A stretch of DNA of 64,000 nucleotides, from assembly GCA_965248755.1 (NCBI GenBank), contig OZ252149.1:864001-928000 (forward strand), read 5' to 3'. The notes below the pieces were generated by a model. The model searched no databases, was not told where the DNA came from, and saw only the letters and a list, made by a program, of their open reading frames with translations. The stretch's first letter is position 1, and the number at the start of each line of letters is the position of its first letter. The position numbers were made by a program, and so were the translations under genes. Shown in pieces: positions 85 through 28,691 of this stretch. This stretch comes from Candidatus Latescibacterota bacterium. Lineage in GTDB: Bacteria; Latescibacterota; CBDEFO01.

Positions 85-948
85 TTAAGCAACCTGGGGT
101 AGTAGATAAAATTGTTTTCTCCACTCTTTTGGGGTCTTATATCCCAGGGATGAATGAAGCCTGTTCTTGTTGTAATTATCGATCCACTGAGATATGATCT
201 TCTCAGCCTGTTCAAAGGATTCAAACTTGTGAAGCCAAACACACTCTTGCTTGAGGGTCCTGAAAAAACGCTCTACAACACCGTTCCAATCGGGTTTACC
301 ACTTGGTATGTATTCCTGACGAATTCCCCAATATTCGGTACTGGCCAAATAGGCCCGAGCCAAAAAGATGGAACCATTGTCAGAGCGCAAAGTGAGACCC
401 TGGGGGACAGCCTCCTTGGAAGTGTATCGAGAGATCACGGCCCGATCCAGGGCATCTGTGGCCTCCAGTGCCCTCCCTTTTCGACTAAAACGATACCCAG
501 GAACCTCCCGGCTTCCGTTGTCCACCACCGCAATAAGAGGACACCAACCATCTTTTCCACAGTAAATCTTTGTCAAGTCACTCGACCACAAACTGTCGGG
601 ACTATCCACCACAGAACGCTTCTGGGCAACCTGTGGCCCCTTTCTCCCGGGACGATTCCACAGCTTACACTGCCACCCCTTAAGCTTCATTATCCTATGA
701 ACCTTCTTAACGTTGACACATTCCCCTTCCTTGAAACGAAGATGCGCCCAAACCCGCCTGTGACCAAATGCCTCTTCTTGGTCCAGTATCCCTCGAATAC
801 GAAAAGCAAGCTCCTCATCTATCACAGGCTCTTTAACAGAAGAACTGACACCTCTATCCCTAAACCTATACAGAGTCGAACGATGCAAACCCAAAGCCAA
901 AGCTACCACCTTGCGGGAATAGCCTCGACCCAAAAACCGCCCACTCAA
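85..948 (-). CDS. IS3-family transposase OrfB (rve/DDE integrase core)
   Basis: Motifs WSSDLT, LRSDNGSIF, NGVVERFFRTLKQE, YNKNRLHSSLGYKTP. Confidence 0.93.
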   Translation of the reverse strand: MSGRFLGRGYSRKVVALALGLHRSTLYRFRDRGVSSSVKEPVIDEELAFRIRGILDQEEAFGHRRVWAHLRFKEGECVNVKKVHRIMKLKGWQCKLWNRPGRKGPQVAQKRSVVDSPDSLWSSDLTKIYCGKDGWCPLIAVVDNGSREVPGYRFSRKGRALEATDALDRAVISRYTSKEAVPQGLTLRSDNGSIFLARAYLASTEYWGIRQEYIPSGKPDWNGVVERFFRTLKQECVWLHKFESFEQAEKIISQWIDNYNKNRLHSSLGYKTPKEWRKQFYLLPQVA

Positions 949-1274
949 GGCAACCGCTTCGTTTTTTTTAGACGGGCTACCTCTTCGAGTATCTCCAACT
1001 GGAGCGTCAACTGCCCTACCTTGCGCTCCAACCGGCTAACCTCTCGCTCCTTCGGATCCTTGCGACCACGCCGAGACTTCAGACTCTCCTGGCCCCCTTC
1101 TAAGAAACTATCACGCCAAGCATACGCCTGCGACTGGCTAATTCCATTCTTACGACACACCTCAGATAGATCTGCTCCTCTCAAAAGAGCCAACACAATC
1201 TCTCCCTTACGGGTCGCCGTCCAGCGCTTACCATCTTTCACTTCGGGGCTCGACACCTTGACCTCCCTTCTCAA
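945..1274 (-). CDS. IS3-family transposase OrfA (HTH)
   Basis: 109 aa, HTH-like SEVCRKNGISQSQAYAWR plus leucine-zipper-like tail; A8 run on the coding strand at 962-969 is a candidate -1 frameshift site into orfB. Confidence 0.9.
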   Translation of the reverse strand: MRREVKVSSPEVKDGKRWTATRKGEIVLALLRGADLSEVCRKNGISQSQAYAWRDSFLEGGQESLKSRRGRKDPKEREVSRLERKVGQLTLQLEILEEVARLKKTKRLP

Positions 1275-1334: not shown

Positions 1335-2024
1335 GTGACATTTATTAATCCTTCTTCTGGTACAGAATTAGGCGGTACATCTGTCACGTTAGTAGGGGAC
1401 AATTTCCAAAGTGGATTAACCGTTACTTTTGGGGATAGCTCAGCCACAGATATAGTCGTAGTATCCTCCACCATCATCACCGCTAAGACTTCCTCATATC
1501 CAGCTGGCACAGTGGATGTGATAGTTACAAATCCCAATGGTCTTTCAGACACACTATCTCATAGCTTTGAGTTTATTGGGATTCCCCCTGTTATGACATC
1601 TATTGATCCTAATACAGGCACACAATTGGGAGGTACATCTGTGACGATAGTAGGCAGTAGTTTCCAAAGTGGATTAACCGTTACTTTTGGAGATAGCACA
1701 GCTACAGATATGTTCGTAGAATCTTCTGATACTATTACTGCTGCATCGCCTGCTTATCCTGCTGGCACGGTGGATGTGATAGTTACAAATCCCAATGGTC
1801 TTTCAGACACACTATCTAGTGGATTTACTTTCGTTAGCGTCCCTGACATTGTAGGAGATTTTGACGGGGACAAGGAAGTAGGCCTTTCAGATTTTGTCCT
1901 TTTTCTGGATGTGTTCGGGGCGACAACCACTCCAGCTAATTCTATATTTGATTTAAACGGTAACGGAGAAATCGGTCTATCTGACTTTGTGATCTTTCTG
2001 GATAACTTCGGTAGTTCAGGTTAG
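1335..2024 (+). pseudogene. C-terminal part of an IPT/TIG-repeat surface protein with a dockerin-like double EF-hand tail; 5' end replaced by IS3 copy 1
   Basis: Two IPT/TIG repeats (GGTSVT..G..F ... [12 protein letters not shown]) then GDFDGDKEVGLSDF and DLNGNGEIGLSDF; frame is open back to the IS end and there is no signal peptide. Confidence 0.75.
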
Positions 2025-2205
2025 TTTTACGATCAGAGACACATGGATTTGTGAAGACACGGAAGCTGATATTGATGAAATAGGCTCTTCCCATCGTGTC
2101 AGAGGGAGAATGTCTGACCCACCAAGTGATAGGGTGCAAGGTTAAAGTCAACAGCGACCGCAATGGGCGTAAAGAGTCCGTCACGGTCGCTGTTTCTATT
2201 TCAAT

Positions 2206-2245
2206 CCCCGACCTCCAATTGAATCTATTGGGGGTTCAATCGGGG
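2206..2245. repeat. 21-bp palindrome family: two nested copies
   Basis: Outer CCCCGA...TTCAATCGGGG encloses inner CTCCAATTGAATCTATTGGGG (2213-2233). Confidence 0.75.
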
Positions 2246-2262
2246 ATCAATCCGGATAATTT

Positions 2263-5200
2263 CTACGTCACCTGTTCTATTTCTTCCTCAACTTCCACCT
2301 GCCTCCCAAGTAGCCTTGCGCCCAGGCACTTGAGATCCTCAAGGATGAAGTAGCCTACGGGGACGAGCAACAGGGTGATAAAGGTCGCGAACAGGACTCC
2401 GAACCCGAGAGAGATAGCCATAGGTATGAGGAACTGCGCCTGCAGACTCCTCTCTAACAGCAGGGGCGTGAGTCCGGCAAAGGTGGTCAAGGATGTGAGC
2501 AAGATGGGACGGAAGCGAGCCACACCTGCCTGCCGAAGTGCCTTCTCTATGGGGGTTCCATCCGCCCGTGTGCGGTTGACAAAATCGACCATGATCAAAC
2601 TGTCGTTTACTACCACACCGGTAAGCGCAACGATGCCGAACATCGACAGGATGGTCAGGTCCATTCCCATTATGATGTGTCCCCATATCGCTCCGACCAC
2701 GCCGAAGGGGATAGCGGCCATAACGATTAAGGGCTGTATGTAGGAGCGGAAGGGGACAGCCAAAAGGGCGTAGATCATCAGCAGGGCGATCAAAAAGCCG
2801 CGTTTTAAGCCATCTAAAGTTTCGCTCTGCTCCCGCTGTTCGCCTTCGAGGGAGTAGCTGATCCCAGGATGGTCTGCGAGCAGCTTGGGCAGGGCCGAAC
2901 CGGTAAGATCGGCTAATATCTCATTTGCATTGGCCTTGCTCTGATCTACATCGGCTGTGACGTTGACGGTGCGCCGGCGGTCGGTGCGTTGAATGGCAGC
3001 ATAGCCGCGCCCGAGTTTGGCGGTTGCCGCAACGGAAAAGGGAACTTCCCCGCCTGAGGGAGTTCGAATGCGCATGTTTTCCAGGTCGCCGAGGGAGCGC
3101 CGACCATCGGCGGGGTATCGCACCATCACGCGGATGTCGTCGCGGCCGCGCTGGATGCGTTGTGCCTCTTCTCCGTAGAAGGCTTGTCGCACCTGGCGCG
3201 CAAGATCAGAGAGGGAAAGACCTAAAGCCTCAGCGGCAGGCGTGATGGAGAGTTCGACCTCCTGTTTTCCGGGTCGGAAGGAGTCTCTAATGTCGATGAC
3301 GCCGGGATAGTTGTTCAACCTTCTCTTAAGTTCGTCCGCCACTACCTTCAACTGATCGTAGTCTAATCCCCGATTGAATCTATCGGGGACAGCAAGCTGG
3401 ATGTTGATGGCCTCGCCGGTGGAGAAGAGAGACGAGGTGAAGGTCAGCTCCTGAGCGTCGGGGATAGGACCGGTAAGGTTGCGCCAGCGGCTGGCGATCT
3501 CGGGACTGGTGATGCTCCGCTCCTCAGAAGGGGCCAGTTCGATGTTAACTTCTCCGAGATGGGCGCCTGAAAAGGAGCTGGTGCTTTGGCCCGGACGGCT
3601 CTGACTTGCGCTAAAGGGGTGTTCACCGATAGAAGCCAGGACGTGGCGGAAGACTCCGTTGTGTATTCCTCCTCCTTCAGCTTCGAGTTCTTTGCGCAGC
3701 TTCTGGGCACTCTCTTCAAGGCGTTGCACGGCATCGGCTGTGACCTCGACAGGCGTCCCCTGCGGCATTGTCAAGAGAGCGACGACGTTATCCGCATCCA
3801 CATTCGGGAAAAAGAGGAACTTGATCCAGCCGCCGCCGACCAGACCGGAAGTGATAAGTAAGATGGACACGCCGATGGCAAGTGTAAGATAGCGCCAACG
3901 CAGGCCCAGCTCTAAAATAGGGCGGTAGACCGTGTCGACGAAGCGCCGCATCTTTCCCGCGAAGCCCTCCTGGAATCTCCCCCAGATGCCGCGTATCCCC
4001 CGAGACGGATCAGGCTGGCCCTTCGACCTGGAGTGAGACAGATGTGCGGGCAAGATGAACAGCGACTCCACAAGGGAAAATAAAAGGGTGGGGATCACGA
4101 TGAGCGGAATGAACTTCATAATCTTGCCCATGTTCCCCGGCACGGACAATAGGGGAGCAAAGGCCGCTACTAAGGTCATAACCGCGAAGATCACCGGCGT
4201 TGCTAACTCCTGGGCACCGTCGACAGCGGCGCGCAGGCCTTTTTTGCCTTTCTGCTGATGCGTGTAGATGTTCTCACCGATGACGATGGCGTCGTCGACG
4301 ACGATTCCGAGCACAGCGATGAAGGCAAAAAGCGAGATGAGATTGATCGAGACGTCGAAGGTCGGCATCAGCCAGATGGCTCCCAGGAAGGAGATCGGAA
4401 TCCCCAGTGCGACCCAGAAGGCAAGGCGCAGCCGCAAAAAGAGCGCTAAAGAGAGAAAGACCAAAACCAGACCGGCCCGGCCGTTGCGGATCAGCAGGTC
4501 GAGCCTGCCCCTAAGGATCCTTGAAAAGTCCTGCCAGATAGTCAGAGTAATCCCTTCAGGCATGCGGGGCTGAGCCGCGCGGACATAGTTCTTGATCGCT
4601 TCGGCGACCTCTAATGCATTCTCTTCCCCGACCCGGAAGACCTGCACCATGACAGAAGGCTTGCCATCGAAACGCGCAGACTGATCGGTGTCAGCAAAGC
4701 CGTCCACGACCTGTGCGACGTCACCCAATCTGAGTCGTGTGCCGTCCGGGAAGGAGCGGAGGATGAGGTCCTCAAATTCTCCCCCTCGGTAGGCCTGACC
4801 CTTTGTACGCAGAAGTATCTCGCCTCCTGAAGTCTTCACAGACCCTCCCGGAAGGTCCAAAGACGAGCGGCGCACCGTACGGACGACCTCATCGAAGGTG
4901 AGGCCATAGCGCTGCAGAGCATCTTCGGAGACCTCTATAGAGATCTCATACGGCCGGGCGTTTGAGAGTTCCACCTGGGTTATCCCGGGCAGGGCGGCGA
5001 TCTCGTCCCGAACCCGTTCGCCGAGGTATTTGAGCGTTACCTCATCGGCATTGCCCAAGATGGCAACGTTTATGACTTGGCGGCGAAGTATTACCTCCTG
5101 GATAACCGGTTTCTCGGTCTCTTCAGGGAAGGTATCGATAGCGTCAACTCGGTTCTTGATGTCGTCAAGGAGCTTGCGAGTATCAACTCCAGGCAAAAGT

Positions 5201-5484
5201 TCCACCGTTACAACACCGACACCCTCCACGGCGGTGGAGGTGATGCGCTTAATGCCCTCAAGGCTCTGTATCTCCTCCTCAATGCGTATGCAGACACCTT
5301 CTTCTACCTCTTCGGGAGCGGCGCCGAGATAGACTACGGAGACAGTGATAAGCTCGGACGAGAACTCGGGGAAGATCTCCTGCTTAAGGCTCATAGCGGT
5401 CAAAACACCGCTGACCAAGATCAAGAACATAAGGAGGTTTGCAGAGACCCTGTTTTCGGCAAACCAGGCGATGGCGCGATTCAT
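2263..5484 (-). CDS. RND efflux transporter permease (AcrB/AcrD/AcrF family)
   Basis: 1073 aa; GIVVDDAIVIGENI, GVVVNDSLIMVD, RFRPILLTSLTT; two large periplasmic loops. Confidence 0.95.
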   Translation of the reverse strand: MNRAIAWFAENRVSANLLMFLILVSGVLTAMSLKQEIFPEFSSELITVSVVYLGAAPEEVEEGVCIRIEEEIQSLEGIKRITSTAVEGVGVVTVELLPGVDTRKLLDDIKNRVDAIDTFPEETEKPVIQEVILRRQVINVAILGNADEVTLKYLGERVRDEIAALPGITQVELSNARPYEISIEVSEDALQRYGLTFDEVVRTVRRSSLDLPGGSVKTSGGEILLRTKGQAYRGGEFEDLILRSFPDGTRLRLGDVAQVVDGFADTDQSARFDGKPSVMVQVFRVGEENALEVAEAIKNYVRAAQPRMPEGITLTIWQDFSRILRGRLDLLIRNGRAGLVLVFLSLALFLRLRLAFWVALGIPISFLGAIWLMPTFDVSINLISLFAFIAVLGIVVDDAIVIGENIYTHQQKGKKGLRAAVDGAQELATPVIFAVMTLVAAFAPLLSVPGNMGKIMKFIPLIVIPTLLFSLVESLFILPAHLSHSRSKGQPDPSRGIRGIWGRFQEGFAGKMRRFVDTVYRPILELGLRWRYLTLAIGVSILLITSGLVGGGWIKFLFFPNVDADNVVALLTMPQGTPVEVTADAVQRLEESAQKLRKELEAEGGGIHNGVFRHVLASIGEHPFSASQSRPGQSTSSFSGAHLGEVNIELAPSEERSITSPEIASRWRNLTGPIPDAQELTFTSSLFSTGEAINIQLAVPDRFNRGLDYDQLKVVADELKRRLNNYPGVIDIRDSFRPGKQEVELSITPAAEALGLSLSDLARQVRQAFYGEEAQRIQRGRDDIRVMVRYPADGRRSLGDLENMRIRTPSGGEVPFSVAATAKLGRGYAAIQRTDRRRTVNVTADVDQSKANANEILADLTGSALPKLLADHPGISYSLEGEQREQSETLDGLKRGFLIALLMIYALLAVPFRSYIQPLIVMAAIPFGVVGAIWGHIIMGMDLTILSMFGIVALTGVVVNDSLIMVDFVNRTRADGTPIEKALRQAGVARFRPILLTSLTTFAGLTPLLLERSLQAQFLIPMAISLGFGVLFATFITLLLVPVGYFILEDLKCLGARLLGRQVEVEEEIEQVT
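3368..3388. repeat. 21-bp palindrome inside the RND coding sequence
   Basis: CCCCGATTGAATCTATCGGGG; reads as (V)PDRFNRG in the RND frame. Confidence 0.95.
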
Positions 5485-6695
5485 CTTGCAACCCCTCGGA
5501 TCACAGCAGAGGCATCCTCATCTCCCATAGGTTCATCGGGCATAGTGCGCACCCGCATTCCGTCCGTCACAGCGTCCAGCGGAGAAAGACAGACACGCTC
5601 CTGGCAGGTCAGTCCCGAGCGGATTACCACTTCCTTCTTATCGGCGCGTAGGACCTCGACAGTGCGGAAGTGGAGCCGGTTTTCATCGTCGACGACCAGG
5701 GTCTGGTTGTGACTCCGCATCGCTCCACGCGGCAGCACGGTTACATCTTCAACCAGTCGGCCAATGATTTCAGCCTCCACAAAGAGGCCCACAGCTAACG
5801 GAGGCCTTTGGGGTTCGTCGCCGCGGCCGTAGGGGTTTTCGACCCGCGCGACGGCGTGGACCATGTGGCTTTTCGGGTCAATCTCTCCCTCGAGGCGCAC
5901 GATGTGGCCTCTCCAACTGTGCTGACGGCCGGCAAAGGTCGAACTCAGGATGACTTCCGGACCGCGGCGGTGTACTGTATCTCCTCGAAAGTCGAGCGGC
6001 AGGTCCAAAAAGGCGAGCTGATCATCGGGAATAGGCAGTCGGACCTCGGCGTAATCGACTGCGTAGATTTTCGCTGAAGGTGCACCTCGGTTTACAAATT
6101 GGCCGACGTCAACGCTCTTTGTGCGGACTCGGCCGGCGTACGGCGCGCGGATCTCGGTGCGCTCCAGATCGAGTTGGGCCTGCTGCAAGACAGCTTGGGC
6201 AGCGGCTAGGTCAGCTCGGGCCTGTGCTAATTGAGGGCGTCGTACGACCAACGGGTGAGGCTTTCCCTGTCCCAGGAGCTCCCATTCACGGCGGGCTACG
6301 TCTGCCTCTTCTTTCTCCCACGCCAGGCGTAGCCTCCCCTGCGCTACCTGTGCCTGCGCGCGCACTAACGCCAGTTCGTAGTCACTTGGGTCGATGGTGA
6401 CTAAGAGGTCACCGGACTCAAAGAAGCCACCCGCAGCAAATGCCGGAGATACAGCTATCACGCGTCCAGATACCTGAGAGATCAGGGTGCTTTCGGTGCG
6501 AGGAGTAACGCTCCCTTGCGAGCGAACCCTCAGTTGAAGGTTCTGACGTTGCACGGTGAGAACCCGAACCAGCGGTGCGGGGACTGCTGCTGGTCGGGAT
6601 TCGACAGCCGTCCGAGCTTTAACTAACACTATTAAGCCCACAATTCCCAGAGCGAGGACAACGAGTGGAAGGATAATCTTTAATTTTCTGTTCAT
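5481..6695 (-). CDS. RND membrane fusion protein (periplasmic adaptor)
   Basis: N-terminal TM segment, SQVSGRV lipoyl half, helical hairpin, IRAPYAGRV; stop overlaps the RND start. Confidence 0.93.
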   Translation of the reverse strand: MNRKLKIILPLVVLALGIVGLIVLVKARTAVESRPAAVPAPLVRVLTVQRQNLQLRVRSQGSVTPRTESTLISQVSGRVIAVSPAFAAGGFFESGDLLVTIDPSDYELALVRAQAQVAQGRLRLAWEKEEADVARREWELLGQGKPHPLVVRRPQLAQARADLAAAQAVLQQAQLDLERTEIRAPYAGRVRTKSVDVGQFVNRGAPSAKIYAVDYAEVRLPIPDDQLAFLDLPLDFRGDTVHRRGPEVILSSTFAGRQHSWRGHIVRLEGEIDPKSHMVHAVARVENPYGRGDEPQRPPLAVGLFVEAEIIGRLVEDVTVLPRGAMRSHNQTLVVDDENRLHFRTVEVLRADKKEVVIRSGLTCQERVCLSPLDAVTDGMRVRTMPDEPMGDEDASAVIRGVAR

Positions 6696-8128
6696 GGTGT
6701 ACTAGCCCCAGTATCAAGTAGTTCTGCAGAATCAGTCACGAAACCTCCGCCGAGAGCTAAATACAGGTCAATACGGGCATCCAGCCGCCCTCGGCGGACG
6801 GCGAGCAGTTGGCTTTCGGCCTCAAAGGCACGCCTTTGTGACTCGAGCATAGTGATGAGATCGGTCAGGCCACTGGCGTACCGATCCTCAGCAAGCCTGC
6901 GTGCGGCTAAGGCCTGCTCGGCAGCAGTTTCCAAAGCCTCTTGCTGCTTGACCAGAAATCCTTCGGCCGCCAAAGCAGCCTCCACCTCGGCGTACGCCCT
7001 GAGGACGCTCTGGGCGTATAGTGCCAGTGCCCCTTCGGACTGAGCATTGGCAAGATCGACGCCGGCCCGCAGGCGACCTCCCTGAAAGAGAGGCTGTACC
7101 AAGTTGCCGACCAGATTCCAGACCGCAAAGTCTCCGTTCAAAAGATCGCTCAGTTCGTTACTGGCAGTGCCCCCAGAGGATGTTAGACTAACTCTGGGAT
7201 AGAGTGCAGCACGGGCCTTGGTCACGCGGGCATCGGCAGCGGCGAGTTGACGCTCGGCCGCAATCAAGTCCGGACGGCGCGCCACCAGGTCTGCCGGTAG
7301 ACCAGCAGGGACACTATCAGGAACCTCTGGGAGTTCTTCTCCCACTGCGATGACCGCGGCGGGATAGCGCCCTAACAACAGTTCGAGTTGCCGCTGCACG
7401 TTATCCAGTCGTTCTTGCCTCTGCTGTAGGGTGGCTTCGGCTGTGGCCACATTAGAAAGCGAAAGGCGCAGATCCAGCGAGGGGCGCAGTCCGCGTTCGT
7501 AGCGGACTCGCACCTGCTGGCTGGAGGTACGGAAGTTCTCGACCGTCGCCTGGGCAAGTTCCACCTGGCTCCTGGCTTCGATGGCCGAAAACCACACCTT
7601 GGAGGTCTGACCAGCAAGTGAAAGCTTGGCGGCTCTCAGGTCCGCCTGCGAAGCCTGCAGATCCGCCAGGGCAGCCGATTTTTGCGCACCCAGCCGACCC
7701 CACAGATCCACCTCCCAGCTTGTGTCCAGAGAGACGCCAAAGCTGTTCGAGATCGAAGTTAGAACACCCCTCCTACCCGGGATAGGAAATCCGATGAAGT
7801 TCTGCCGACGCCGGTAGGCGTTAAAGTTAAGTCCGGCCTGAGGCAGCAACGGAGCACCGGCAATACGGGCCTGTGCAGAAGCAGCATAAAGTCGGGCAGC
7901 AGCGATCTGCAGGTTGTAGTTATAGGTTAGGGCCTCGGCCACCAGTTCCTCTAATTGAGGATCGCCGAAATGGGACCACCAGAGGGTGTCGCCGGGCATT
8001 TCCGTGTTGACAGCGGCAGTCCACCGATCGGGCGTTGCAACCCAGCGATTGGGATTCTGTGTCTTCGGCGCCGATGCGCAGGCCGCGGTCAAGAGAGGAA
8101 TTACCAAAAATAGGAATTTGACTCTCAT
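6692..8128 (-). CDS. Outer-membrane efflux lipoprotein (NodT/OprM/TolC family)
   Basis: Lipobox LTAAC; SWEVDLWGR, PADLVARRPD, LYLALGGGF. Confidence 0.93.
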   Translation of the reverse strand: MRVKFLFLVIPLLTAACASAPKTQNPNRWVATPDRWTAAVNTEMPGDTLWWSHFGDPQLEELVAEALTYNYNLQIAAARLYAASAQARIAGAPLLPQAGLNFNAYRRRQNFIGFPIPGRRGVLTSISNSFGVSLDTSWEVDLWGRLGAQKSAALADLQASQADLRAAKLSLAGQTSKVWFSAIEARSQVELAQATVENFRTSSQQVRVRYERGLRPSLDLRLSLSNVATAEATLQQRQERLDNVQRQLELLLGRYPAAVIAVGEELPEVPDSVPAGLPADLVARRPDLIAAERQLAAADARVTKARAALYPRVSLTSSGGTASNELSDLLNGDFAVWNLVGNLVQPLFQGGRLRAGVDLANAQSEGALALYAQSVLRAYAEVEAALAAEGFLVKQQEALETAAEQALAARRLAEDRYASGLTDLITMLESQRRAFEAESQLLAVRRGRLDARIDLYLALGGGFVTDSAELLDTGASTP

Positions 8129-8194
8129 ACCGTTTCTCTTTTGTAAAGGTGCCTTTTATGTCCTGCGAGGGAATAACCAGAAATATTTTACTTT

Positions 8195-8215
8195 CCCCGA
8201 TTGAATCTATCGGGG
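8195..8215. repeat. 21-bp palindrome, intergenic
   Basis: Exact CCCCGATTGAATCTATCGGGG between pck and the efflux operon. Confidence 0.95.
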
Positions 8216-8247
8216 ATCAATGTTGTATTATTACCTTTTACTATGAT

Positions 8248-9825
8248 TTACTTTTGAAAGACGGTTCTGATATCTTTGTGCAATCCACCATATTGTTCTA
8301 GCCTTTCCGCTCTTTGTCTGTCCAATTCTCTCTGTCGCACCCCAAATTCCGAAGATGAAAATAATCTTTCTGGGTGCATTAGAATAGAATCGACTAATCG
8401 TACAGATTTCGGAACCAGCAGTCCCGTTGCTTCAGATTCGATCCAGTCTTCTAATCCTCCCCTAATTACTGCATCTAAAATGCCTACGGTATCTTCTAAA
8501 CGAATGTCGTGGTAGTGAGCTCCTTCGCCGATCCCCCCGGTATTGAGAAGATAACAGTTTACATGAGGGTTGTCTGTTAATATATCGTAAAAGAGATTTG
8601 CATGGTCTGCTTTGTCTCCTGCGACAAAGGGGTCGTAAAAGAATTCATTTTTTATTTTGCCCGCCTGGGTCGGATCTCCTGCAGAAGATTCCATAGACTG
8701 GCCTAAAACCATAAATGCTGTCGCCTCTTGCGGTGTTAACTTCGCAATCGCAGGGATAATGCTCCCTCTTGTTATGATAAATAGATTATCGATTCTTTCG
8801 ACATTGATATCCCTGCTTGCATGCATAAAATCTCTTCTCTCGATAATCGCTCTTCCATTTGACGTTCGCTCTATGTTGTAAAAATCGATTTCTCCGTTTT
8901 CATCGACATAGACATTTTCAAGGAATGTATCCGATTTTAGAGTTCCATAATAGGTTTCTATTTGATTGTGAGGATTTAAGCCATCTGTTTTGACGAATAG
9001 TCCACCTGCTTCAAATCCACCAAAAGATCCCTCTCTTCTCAAGATTCCTCCATCGTCCTGGATTAACCATGATTTCTCCTCTGTCTTTCGCGCCAACACC
9101 TTGCACGTTAAAGATGTCTTGCCATTTGCACTCAGGGCGACAAACAAGGAACACCGTGTTTCGCAGCCTCCGTGAGACATTTCCAGATAATCATGTCTGC
9201 ACCCTGCATGCAGGAAAATCGCATCGCTCTTTTGCTTGGCTCTATAATTTTCCCCTGCAAAGATGGCCTTTTTCCACTCACCGGTATAGTTGCTATTTCT
9301 CACGATCTTGGTGAGGCAACCTTCCCGAGAGTGTGCATTCCTTATGGTAATACTCTTTTGAGGTAGCGTTTTTGAACTGTTTTCTTCGTATTCTTTATCG
9401 AAAAAGATAATGACTTGATGCGTAGGACGTTCTACAGATGTCGGCTTAAACAACTTCATTCCACCGTAGGCCAGATGAGCAAATCTCTTTGGAGTAATCA
9501 ATCTTGCCGTTATCCCTTCGCTCCCGTCTCCAACTACGACATCGACGCTGATAAGATGCTCTTTACGTAGATGCTCTGTTGCCTGATCTAATAGCGCATG
9601 TTCACCTTTTCCAAAAGGAGTGTCGATATTGTTTTTTGTAAACATAGCTGCTCTGGAGGTCGGTTCTGAATTAGCCATAATATTGCCATATCGGGTCTCT
9701 TTCACCCCCGGTTCTTCAAGAGCAAGATTTCTCAAAAGGTCTCTACTCGGGTTATGTGTCAGTCTGCCATCCTTCCTTGCATCTTCATAAATCTTCCTTG
9801 CAGTTTGTTGAAATTCATCTATCAT
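8248..9825 (-). CDS. pckA: Phosphoenolpyruvate carboxykinase (ATP)-like, divergent
   Basis: YTGEWKK, LHAGC, LSANGKTS P-loop, IQDDG, FEAGG, LENV, NGRA, YLLNTG; start placed at ATG 9825 behind AGGAG. Confidence 0.8.
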   Translation of the reverse strand: MIDEFQQTARKIYEDARKDGRLTHNPSRDLLRNLALEEPGVKETRYGNIMANSEPTSRAAMFTKNNIDTPFGKGEHALLDQATEHLRKEHLISVDVVVGDGSEGITARLITPKRFAHLAYGGMKLFKPTSVERPTHQVIIFFDKEYEENSSKTLPQKSITIRNAHSREGCLTKIVRNSNYTGEWKKAIFAGENYRAKQKSDAIFLHAGCRHDYLEMSHGGCETRCSLFVALSANGKTSLTCKVLARKTEEKSWLIQDDGGILRREGSFGGFEAGGLFVKTDGLNPHNQIETYYGTLKSDTFLENVYVDENGEIDFYNIERTSNGRAIIERRDFMHASRDINVERIDNLFIITRGSIIPAIAKLTPQEATAFMVLGQSMESSAGDPTQAGKIKNEFFYDPFVAGDKADHANLFYDILTDNPHVNCYLLNTGGIGEGAHYHDIRLEDTVGILDAVIRGGLEDWIESEATGLLVPKSVRLVDSILMHPERLFSSSEFGVRQRELDRQRAERLEQYGGLHKDIRTVFQK

Positions 9826-10040
9826 TAGAGTTTGTCTCCTTAAATAGACAGTAGAAACATTGTTATCTATCCCCATTTGATAAATATACTGTAATTGGGT
9901 TTATCGGACAAGAAAAAACCCGCAATGACATTGGTTGCATCTTACCTTCGGTTATTGCGAAGCGCCAAACCCCGGCCCCGTCAGTAGGCGCTATCCGAAG
10001 GAACGCCAAGGGAAACCAGAAACAATCTCTGTGATAAGTA

Positions 10041-10256
10041 GTCGCAACCTCTTCCAAGGTCGTAACCTCTTCCAAGGTCGTAACCTCTTCCAAGGTCGTA
10101 ACCTCTTCCAAGGTCGTAACCTCTTCCAAGGTCGTAACCTCTTCCAAGGTCGTAACCTCTTCCAAGGTCGTAACCTCTTCCAAGGTCGTAACCTCTTCCA
10201 AGGTCGTAGCCTCTTCCAAGGTCGTAGCCTCTTCCAAGGTCGTAGCCTCTTCCGAG
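10041..10256. repeat. Tandem repeat, 12 x 18 bp (GTCGTARCCTCTTCCAAG)
   Basis: Head-to-tail units with no spacers; units 2-9 carry GTAACC, units 10-12 carry GTAGCC, unit 1 carries GCAACC. Confidence 0.97.
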
Positions 10257-10585
10257 CCAACTTTATGTTGTTTCACCAGCGCGTTCTCATATTATATATA
10301 CAACTTATTGATAGAGATCATACTTAAATCCATTTTCCCCTTGTCAGATAAACTCACAAACAGTATATTAAGTCTCTTTGAAGGGCGCAGCATATTTTTC
10401 TAGATATAGCTAAGAAGACTTGCCGCGGAAGGACCAAACAATTGAAAAAACTTAACGAGGCGTTGCTATGGTAAAAATTGATGTCTCAAAGTTTAAGCAG
10501 AGTCGAAAGGCGAATGCAGGAGAGGCTTAGCCTAAATCTTAACCTTCGCCTACCTTTACCGGGAGCGTGACCCGGGAGCGTGAGA

Positions 10586-27403: not shown

Positions 27404-28691
27404 TGTACTGCCCCCCAGAAAAGCGACATCAATTAAGCAACTTGGGGTAGCAGATAAAATTGTTTTCTCCACTCTTCCGGGGTCTTGTATCCCAGGGATG
27501 AATGAAGCCTGTTCTTGTTGTAATTATCGATCCACTGAGATATGATCTTCTCAGCTTGTTCAAAGGACTTGAAATTGTGAAGCCACACACACTCCTGCTT
27601 GAGGGTCCTGAAAAAACGTTCTATGACCCCGTTCCAATCGGCCTTTCCGCTCGGAATATATTCTTGACGAATGTCCCAATATTCGGTACTTGCCAAATAG
27701 GTCCGAGACAAAAAGATGGAGCCGTTGTCAGAGCGCAAAGTGAGACCCTGGGGGACAGCCTCCTTAGGAAGTGTATCGAGAGATCACGGCCCGATCCAGG
27801 GCATCTGTGGCCTCCAGTGCCCTCCCTTTTCGACTAAAACGATACCCGGGGAACCTCCCGACTCCCGTTGTCCACCACCGCAATAAGAGGACACCAACCA
27901 TCTTCCCCACAATAGATCTTGGTCAAGTCAGCCGACCAGAGACTGTCAGGACGATCCATCACAGAACGCTTCTGGGCAACCTGTGGCCCCTTTCTCCCGG
28001 GGTCCCCGATTGATTCTATCGGGGATTCCACAGCTTACACTGCCACCCCTTAAGCTTCATTATCCTATGAACCTTCTTGATGTTGACATATGCCCCTTCC
28101 TTGAAACGAAGATGCGCCCAAACCCGCCTGTGACCAAATGCCTCTTCTTGGTCGAGTATCCCTCGAATACGAAAAGCAAGCTGTTCATCTATCACAGACT
28201 CTTCGACAGAAGAACTGACACCTCTATACCTAAGCCTACACAGAGTCGAACGATGCAAACCCAAAGCCAAAGCTACCACCTTCCGGGAATAGCCTCGACC
28301 CAAAAACCGCTCACTCAAGGCAACCGCTTCGTTTTTTTTAGACGGGCTACCTCCTCGAGTATCTCCAACTGGAGGGTTAAGTGCCCTACCTTACGCTCCA
28401 ACCGGCTGACCTCCCGCTCCTTCGCATCCTTGCGACCACGCCGAGACTTCAGACTCTCCTGGCCTCCTTCCAAGAAACTATCACGCCAAGCATACGCCTG
28501 TGACTGGCTAATTCCATTCTTCCAACACACCTCTGATACATTCGCTCCTTTCAAAACAGCCAACACCACCTCTACCTTACGGGTCGCCGTCCAGCGCTTA
28601 CCATCTTTCACTTCGGGGCTTGACACCTTGACCTCCTTTCTCAAACCCCAATTTGCAAAATATTTGTCGCCCTGTCAAGGGGAGCGGTATG
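27404..28691 (-). mobile_element. IS3-family element, copy 2 (orfB inactivated)
   Basis: 4-bp target duplication GAAT (27400-27403 and 28692-28695); orfA intact at 28315-28644; orfB has two +1 indels and a net +20-bp palindrome insertion relative to copy 1. Confidence 0.95.
28004..28024. repeat. 21-bp palindrome inserted in IS3 orfB
   Basis: CCCCGATTGATTCTATCGGGG, absent at the homologous site of copy 1 (near 651). Confidence 0.95.

Follow-up and report, generated by a model that had tools for sequence, protein, structure and literature searches.

The pump operon and the insert in its permease gene

The window, i.e., the whole 64,000-nt stretch of DNA analysed here with positions counted from its first letter, belongs to a genome of 4.54 Mb (G000), which was compared with that of a sister species of the same genus (G001). 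A three-gene pump operon contains the insert under study, and further copies of the same hairpin element lie on both sides of it:

2213–2233, plus strand: intergenic copy of the hairpin, 30 nt beyond the RND stop codon and nested in an older copy
2263–5484, minus strand: RND permease gene (AcrB/AcrD/AcrF family), host of the insert; open ORF of 1073 aa
3367–3389, plus strand: 23-bp hairpin copy in the RND gene (21-bp core at 3368–3388, inner 19 nt at 3369–3387, outer T/A pair)
3369–3389, minus strand: 21-nt gain of the RND gene as judged from homologs, framed so that the conserved Gly is retained (residues V699–R705)
5481–6695, minus strand: HlyD-family adaptor gene, with an empty site near 5531
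6692–8128, minus strand: outer-membrane efflux protein (OEP-family) gene, the first of the operon
8195–8215, plus strand: exact intergenic copy of the hairpin upstream of the operon

The palindrome at 3368–3388 lies in frame inside the RND ORF, exactly as the earlier note had read it. The encoded protein matched ACR_tran across residues 7–1048, and D397, D398, N960 and R992 of the RND membrane motifs, which presumably serve in the proton relay, were all present. Comparison of the gene with that of the sister species yielded a dS of 0.098 and a dN of 0.019 (dN/dS 0.19), indicating that it evolves under purifying selection with the insert present. In addition, a contig from a separate, unrelated study (X7) covered 3122–3472 without a gap. 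In the adaptor gene, an in-frame copy of 27 nt accompanied by a short duplication is present in G001 and run X7, and the site near 5531 is empty in G000.

At the insert, the RND protein was seven residues longer than at 23/23 loci from outside the genus, and G001 had the same codons. Among the best 120 database hits, the segment comprised 14 residues in all 119 non-genus homologs and 21 residues only in the genus cluster. None of these homologs shared the longer loop, and the gain of a seven-residue peptide proposed in the earlier note thus stands, with different boundaries: because Gly occurs at the column of G706 in 107 of the 119 homologs, the gained residues are most simply V699–R705, and Gly706 is conserved. 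This register differs by one base from the limits of the palindrome itself. No empty allele of the RND site was found in a close relative, and none of the pieces listed for runs X8, X9 and X13 extended across the site. Both species share the insert and, therefore, their divergence postdates the insertion.

An AlphaFold2 model of the protein, built with 24 sequences, had a mean pLDDT of 79 and matched known RND pumps at a TM of approximately 0.83. It contained a strand at 693–698, a coil at 699–706 and a helix at 707–724, and the insert is thus predicted to fall in a strand–helix loop; the earlier note had anticipated a surface loop. The pLDDT was 58 in the block 701–710, compared with 85 and 90 in the adjoining blocks. 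Two solved RND chains (8yr0_A and 7wlv_A) showed only a 2-residue gap relative to the query at this loop, suggesting that its length varies naturally among RND pumps.

The hairpin element and its insertion sites

The sequence at 3368–3388 is an interrupted palindrome with a stem of 8 bp, including the flanking T/A pair (3367–3389), and a loop of 7 nt; on the plus strand, the hairpin folded with −8.2 kcal/mol (z −2.8). The window contained 18 motif matches (12 sites), compared with 0 in 100 shuffles. Across G000, the element occupied 572 sites at ≤ 4 mismatches, 105 of them exact. When one mismatch to the 21-mer was allowed, 293 matches were found in G000 and 313 in G001, and the 21-mer was absent from the other 149 of the 151 phylum genomes searched at this threshold. 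The outer pair co-varied (T–A in 268 and C–G in 168 of the 572 copies), and 32 compensatory changes occurred at stem pair 5/17, although the covarying stem changes are not independent because the copies are related. The flank profile was flat past 2–4 nt, and close inverted pairs were few (11 of the 42 pairs < 200 nt apart). Copies showed no strand bias with respect to replication (209/431, p = 0.56) or transcription (95 vs. 114). A search of window positions 2000–9000 against Rfam yielded no match at E values up to 1, and viral contigs contained no exact match. No description of the element was found in the literature searched, which included few subscription papers.

Beyond the phylum, the exact 21-mer occurred in Deltaproteobacteria, Thermodesulfobacteriota and one Nanoarchaeia contig (at least 12 among the 80 loci listed). 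Five further genomes holding the element (G151–G155) had 54, 18, 8, 10 and 1 matches at two mismatches. In G155, the single exact copy lies on a 3.5-kb Nanoarchaeia contig (L072), for which mis-binning is possible.

Empty counterparts of filled sites were surveyed for 830 filled copies, i.e., the 572 of G000 and the remainder from ca. 1.2 Mb of G001 and small loci. Such a counterpart was found for 108 copies, representing 53 contexts; 12 of these were left out (nested, or flanks < 75% identical), leaving 41 simple events. Among the 37 not scored as coding, the net gain was 19 nt in seven, 20 nt in six, 21 nt in four and 27 nt in five, with others from 10 to 40 nt. Two length classes stood out, with net gains of 19–21 and 26–27 nt. 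In seven of the eight net-19 events, one of which was excluded from the simple set because of its flank identity, the gained sequence was the inner 19 nt between a C and a G. The dinucleotide CG stood at the right junction in 10/26 events with a net gain ≤ 22 nt (genome rate 5.3%), although the direction of single pairs is ambiguous because a loss of the inner 19 nt also leaves CG. Six events were polarised by many empty copies; CG was present in four of them, and in three of these the neighbouring bases had been overwritten.

Direct repeats of ≥ 4 nt flanked 61/460 contexts, compared with 19.6 in shuffles (highest of 200, 34). When measured on the 23-mer, 40 contexts had 3-bp repeats, against an expected 13.9, and 19 had 4-bp repeats, against an expected 3.5; 13 of the 24 contexts with longer repeats implied a net gain of 27 nt. 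Most clean empty/filled events lacked a target duplication, and duplications of 3–4 bp were found in a minority. Copies were also nested in older copies and in other hairpins.

Other repeats were observed alongside the element. A dimer of GTCATTGCGAG-footed repeats, ca. 120 bp long, is present in dozens of copies in G000 (e.g., the C1:103986 region). In subsets of these copies, the element lies within the loop of the left or of the right hairpin, and such subsets subsequently increased in number. The 8-mer CTGTCTAC forms a second short repeat family, with 630 occurrences in G000 (ca. 138 expected), 58% outside the ORF set and often 14 nt apart; 92 hairpin copies lay ≤ 30 nt from its core (21 expected). 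In the window, a tandem 18-nt repeat lies downstream of the PEP carboxykinase gene (9863–10276, minus strand), one frame of which reads EEVTTL repeats.

Copies in genes and the reading frame

Coding context was assigned by a hexamer score, by which 34 of the 572 copies had coding flanks on both sides; the frame was open in 28 and not in six. Since random positions pass the same test in 37.9% of cases, 217 such copies were expected, which corresponds to an approximately six-fold depletion. In-gene copies are undercounted, as the score calls no more than 38% of random positions coding. A stop codon occurs in two of the six frames in which the 23-mer can be read, and the 28 open copies used only the remaining four (8, 8, 6 and 6). 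The net gain was a multiple of three in 16/37 simple events not scored as coding and in 4/4 coding events (p = 0.048); after the reassignment of two events that are coding by homology, the counts were 14/35 and 6/6 (p = 0.009). Within coding copies, 8 synonymous and 28 non-synonymous substitutions were found, compared with 11.4 and 34.0 expected (p = 0.85); thus, no synonymous excess, and no selection on the peptide, was seen.

A counter-example to tolerated insertion was found within the window, in an insertion sequence (IS):

639–666, plus strand: empty target inside an intact integrase-core (rve) transposase ORF (85–948, minus strand); 56 such empty copies in G000
28004–28024, plus strand: copy inserted at the same site of another IS copy, with a gain of 20 nt that brings a stop into frame and causes a frameshift; 15 copies in G000

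The IS lies at window 85–1274 and in the 28004 region; its killed copies also occurred in G001, and their number in G000 together with their presence in the sister species indicates that the dead IS copies spread in trans. In seven IS copies, a 27-nt hairpin copy was additionally observed near the opposite end.

Host ORFs were scanned against Pfam (30) and NCBIfam (all 35); named hosts included PheS, Fmt, LpxD, SecA, SMC, ProA, phosphohexomutase, FabF, MeaB, TupA and an ABC transporter. Across hosts, the element adds 6–9 residues to loops. PheS was six residues longer than 4/4 solved (PDB) homologs displayed and 5–6 longer than three relatives, Fmt seven longer than 4/4 relatives and the phosphohexomutase (pgm) seven longer than 3/3. 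SecA had 7–8 extra residues in a linker, and ten further ORFs had seven or nine relative to paralogs. The in-frame copies of lpxD, proA, smc and meaB yielded no clean net length: LpxD is longer by ca. 14 residues, the proA copy is nested (+18 in G000 and +7 in G001), the loop is rearranged in smc, and no outgroup was found for meaB. The genes pheS, fmt, lpxD, secA, smc, proA and pgm are each single copy in G000. For six host genes besides the RND gene, dN/dS was 0.09–0.44; this range, which covers all seven tested, and the single-copy status suggest that the host genes may remain functional. In another phylum, a 208-aa ORF of G154 reads through the same element (L253:1190–1816, minus strand); by eye, it is regulator-like with a C-terminal helix-turn-helix. 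The smc gene of G001 (L197/L199, query residues ca. 572–627) reads in two frames, separated at a second, nested insertion whose end is a G run; the split may be a real frameshift or a homopolymer error. The smc of G000 is open and independently gained 27 nt near the position of this split.

These observations bear on the earlier note's reading, which set the open ORF beside an element length that is a multiple of three. The net gain varied (19, 20, 21, 22 and 24–28 nt), two of the frames contain a stop, coding DNA is depleted of copies and a transposase is broken by the element. The proposal that it adds peptides without destroying proteins is in part supported, by the RND pump and the single-copy housekeeping genes, but not as a consequence of a length divisible by three. 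All four predicted peptides did recur in other proteins, single-copy housekeeping ones among them, with 16, 15, 15 and 5 exact occurrences in a crude ORF set. In this reading, insertion is blind to frame and is followed by selection. The frame of in-gene copies is kept by selection, the element is not designed for it, and the in-frame copies located in loops are the survivors.

In-frame palindromes are already known, and the RND insert alone is therefore a modest finding. The element as a whole is a clean small case of linker scanning performed by nature: it points out loops of the RND pump, PheS, Fmt, SecA and other proteins that tolerate extra residues, and the length spectrum without selection can be measured alongside the in-gene copies.

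Movement of the element and comparison with known repeats

The element is probably a very small non-autonomous mobile hairpin that spread through the genus without regard to frame, its frame in genes being kept by selection. Judged from its sequence, an origin from REPs is likely: the hairpin would be the stem-loop of a CGTC/SRM-type REP that lost its foot. It may enter at a nick or break and be joined by microhomology of 1–2 nt to its own ends; the varying junctions and this microhomology suggest copying primed at a nick, or end-joining. In one class, the 19-nt core would be placed between C and G with a net gain of 19–21 nt, often overwriting neighbouring bases; in the other, the whole 23-mer would be accompanied by a 3–4-bp duplication, giving 26–27 nt. 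Selection would then remove nearly all in-gene copies and leave those with multiples of three and stop-free frames in loops or linkers that tolerate them. The copy in the RND gene would be such a survivor, fixed before the species split, whose seven presumably translated residues in a strand–helix loop of the periplasmic part are most likely near-neutral. The two junction classes with their empty sites make it testable how repeats of ca. 20 bp move.

The entry step might be explained differently. One possibility, which we regard as rather doubtful, is that no dedicated enzyme is involved and existing copies serve as donors when forks stalled at hairpins switch template or undergo gene conversion, with short microhomology at the target. 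The frequent nesting, the overwritten junction bases and the compensatory changes at pair 5/17 are consistent with this, as is the survey of 25 short genes that have copies at both ends, which look ordinary by eye and include no enzyme gene or partner IS. However, the letter-perfect 21-mers in other phyla and the net-27 peak suggest a defined cut, and copies show no leading/lagging bias. This explanation differs from the mobile hairpin set out above only at the entry step. An Ssn-family GIY-YIG nuclease that moves the hairpin in trans, or formerly did so, with the element as a footless SRM, is unlikely, even though several footed relatives exist. The same stem occurs behind a TGTCAT foot in G151–G154 (11, 2, 2 and 23 matches), i.e., in four of the five other element-holding genomes, and a variant seen eight times in G000 is identical to a footed hairpin of G154. 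In one of the 152 footed loci (L361), such hairpins enclose a GIY-YIG gene of 95 aa, and 67/572 copies lie ≤ 60 nt from a GTCAT foot (8 expected). The sister species also holds an ssnA homolog (67%) flanked by footed hairpins, and an NTS–ssnA–NTS unit is noted to resemble an insertion sequence (PMC11893778). Against this, footed copies of the stem itself numbered 0 in both G000 and G001, the G001 hairpins have other loops, G000 has no ssnA gene, and 32 of the 33 phylum genomes with ssnA homologs (among 151) lack the element. Moreover, SsnA cleavage is reported to require bases on the upstream side of the palindrome and to be abolished by changes in the palindrome (PMC11893778), requirements that count against a footless hairpin as substrate.

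More improbable still are readings in which the peptide or motif is retained for a function, as a loop module, a protein-binding motif or a DNA-uptake-like signal. The RND-site DNA is identical in both species and the element is kept in several housekeeping genes, but 21 identical bases are unremarkable at a gene identity of 96.3%, four unrelated peptides are used equally, and the strong depletion in genes and the lack of a synonymous excess speak against such a role. That the insert is an assembly artefact or lies in a dead gene is scarcely credible: G000 is indeed rich in broken mobile elements, but the same insert is present in a second assembly, the X7 contig is gap-free, dN/dS is low and the membrane-motif residues are intact. 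Finally, a speculative scenario, which we consider quite unlikely, is that a 19-bp core was shed from Ssn-associated REPs, passed letter for letter between phyla and nick-primed into C^G sites. If true, bacteria would hardly have a smaller mobile unit than this free-moving 19-bp core, and the pairs of empty and filled sites, one of them in the window, would be the first direct substrate set for CGTC-type and SDR-type mobility.

Several other candidate movers were rejected. The only GIY-YIG hit in G000 lay in a 608-aa frame and is not a small Ssn; DUF559 was found 0 times in G000 and twice in G001 (in 375- and 880-aa frames). Reverse transcriptases were dropped since they are not shared (two in G000, none in G001). 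The two genes (L147/L148; G000:C1:3730098–3733640 and 3677013–3680405) are retron- or defence-like by eye, one of them being cut by an IS at its 3′ end and lying behind a 301-aa ORF. A target of the restriction-site or HIP type was discarded because C5 methylases are absent from G000 (three in G001) and the frequencies of TCGA and CCGG are ordinary (0.93 and 0.88). As an observation in its own right, the G001 ssnA homolog forms a compact NTS–ssnA–NTS cassette (L393:1501–1782, minus strand), with none at the matching place in G000.

Among known systems, RPEs are palindromic elements of 105–146 bp found in frame in unrelated conserved genes; they are lineage-restricted and without a known transposase, and one tested host enzyme, Gmk, stays active (Ogata et al. 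2000, as summarised in PMC2229807 and PMC10969869). The element resembles them as an in-frame palindrome in unrelated conserved genes that is absent from homologs, lineage-restricted and without a known transposase. In contrast, its net gain is only 19–27 nt (6–9 residues) with a conserved block of 21–23 nt, and ca. 6% of its copies are in genes, compared with nearly half in RPE families as described there (PMC2229807, PMC10969869). CGTC-tagged REPs also include intragenic copies encoding in-frame peptides and have no dedicated transposase (Di Nocera et al. 2013, PMC3733652), and NTS/SRM repeats are described as accompanying SsnA (PMC11893778). The element shares with both an 8-bp stem of the same type, found elsewhere with the TGTCAT foot, but lacks an unpaired CGTC/TGTC foot or tail. 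Its loop is 7 nt instead of the 4–5 nt given for CGTC families, it occurs mostly as single copies rather than head-to-head dimers (PMC3733652), and it inserts into footed REPs as a guest. Unlike NTS–SRM, it flanks no ssnA in G000, and the ssnA of G001 is flanked by other hairpins.

Similar to GTAG REPs and REPINs with RAYT, the element is a short, abundant palindrome gained and lost between relatives, but it has no fixed GTAG foot and few close inverted pairs, and no Y1_Tnp/RAYT gene was found in G000. Unlike MITEs, it shows no fixed-length target duplication and no partner IS among the flanked genes. The SDRs of Nostoc, reportedly described by Elhai and colleagues in 2008, are hairpins of 21–27 nt, mobile without an encoded enzyme and present in genes; to our knowledge, their sequence is unrelated to that of the element. 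The two are alike in size class, hairpin form, mobility without a known enzyme and a short preferred target, whereas the element targets C^G or makes a short duplication and occurs in several phyla. The preferred target of SDR5 is cited as HIP1 (PMC5861425, PMC3116915). In its workings, the element is a very small case of a phenomenon already known from RPEs and intragenic REPs, and its size falls in the range of the Nostoc SDRs.
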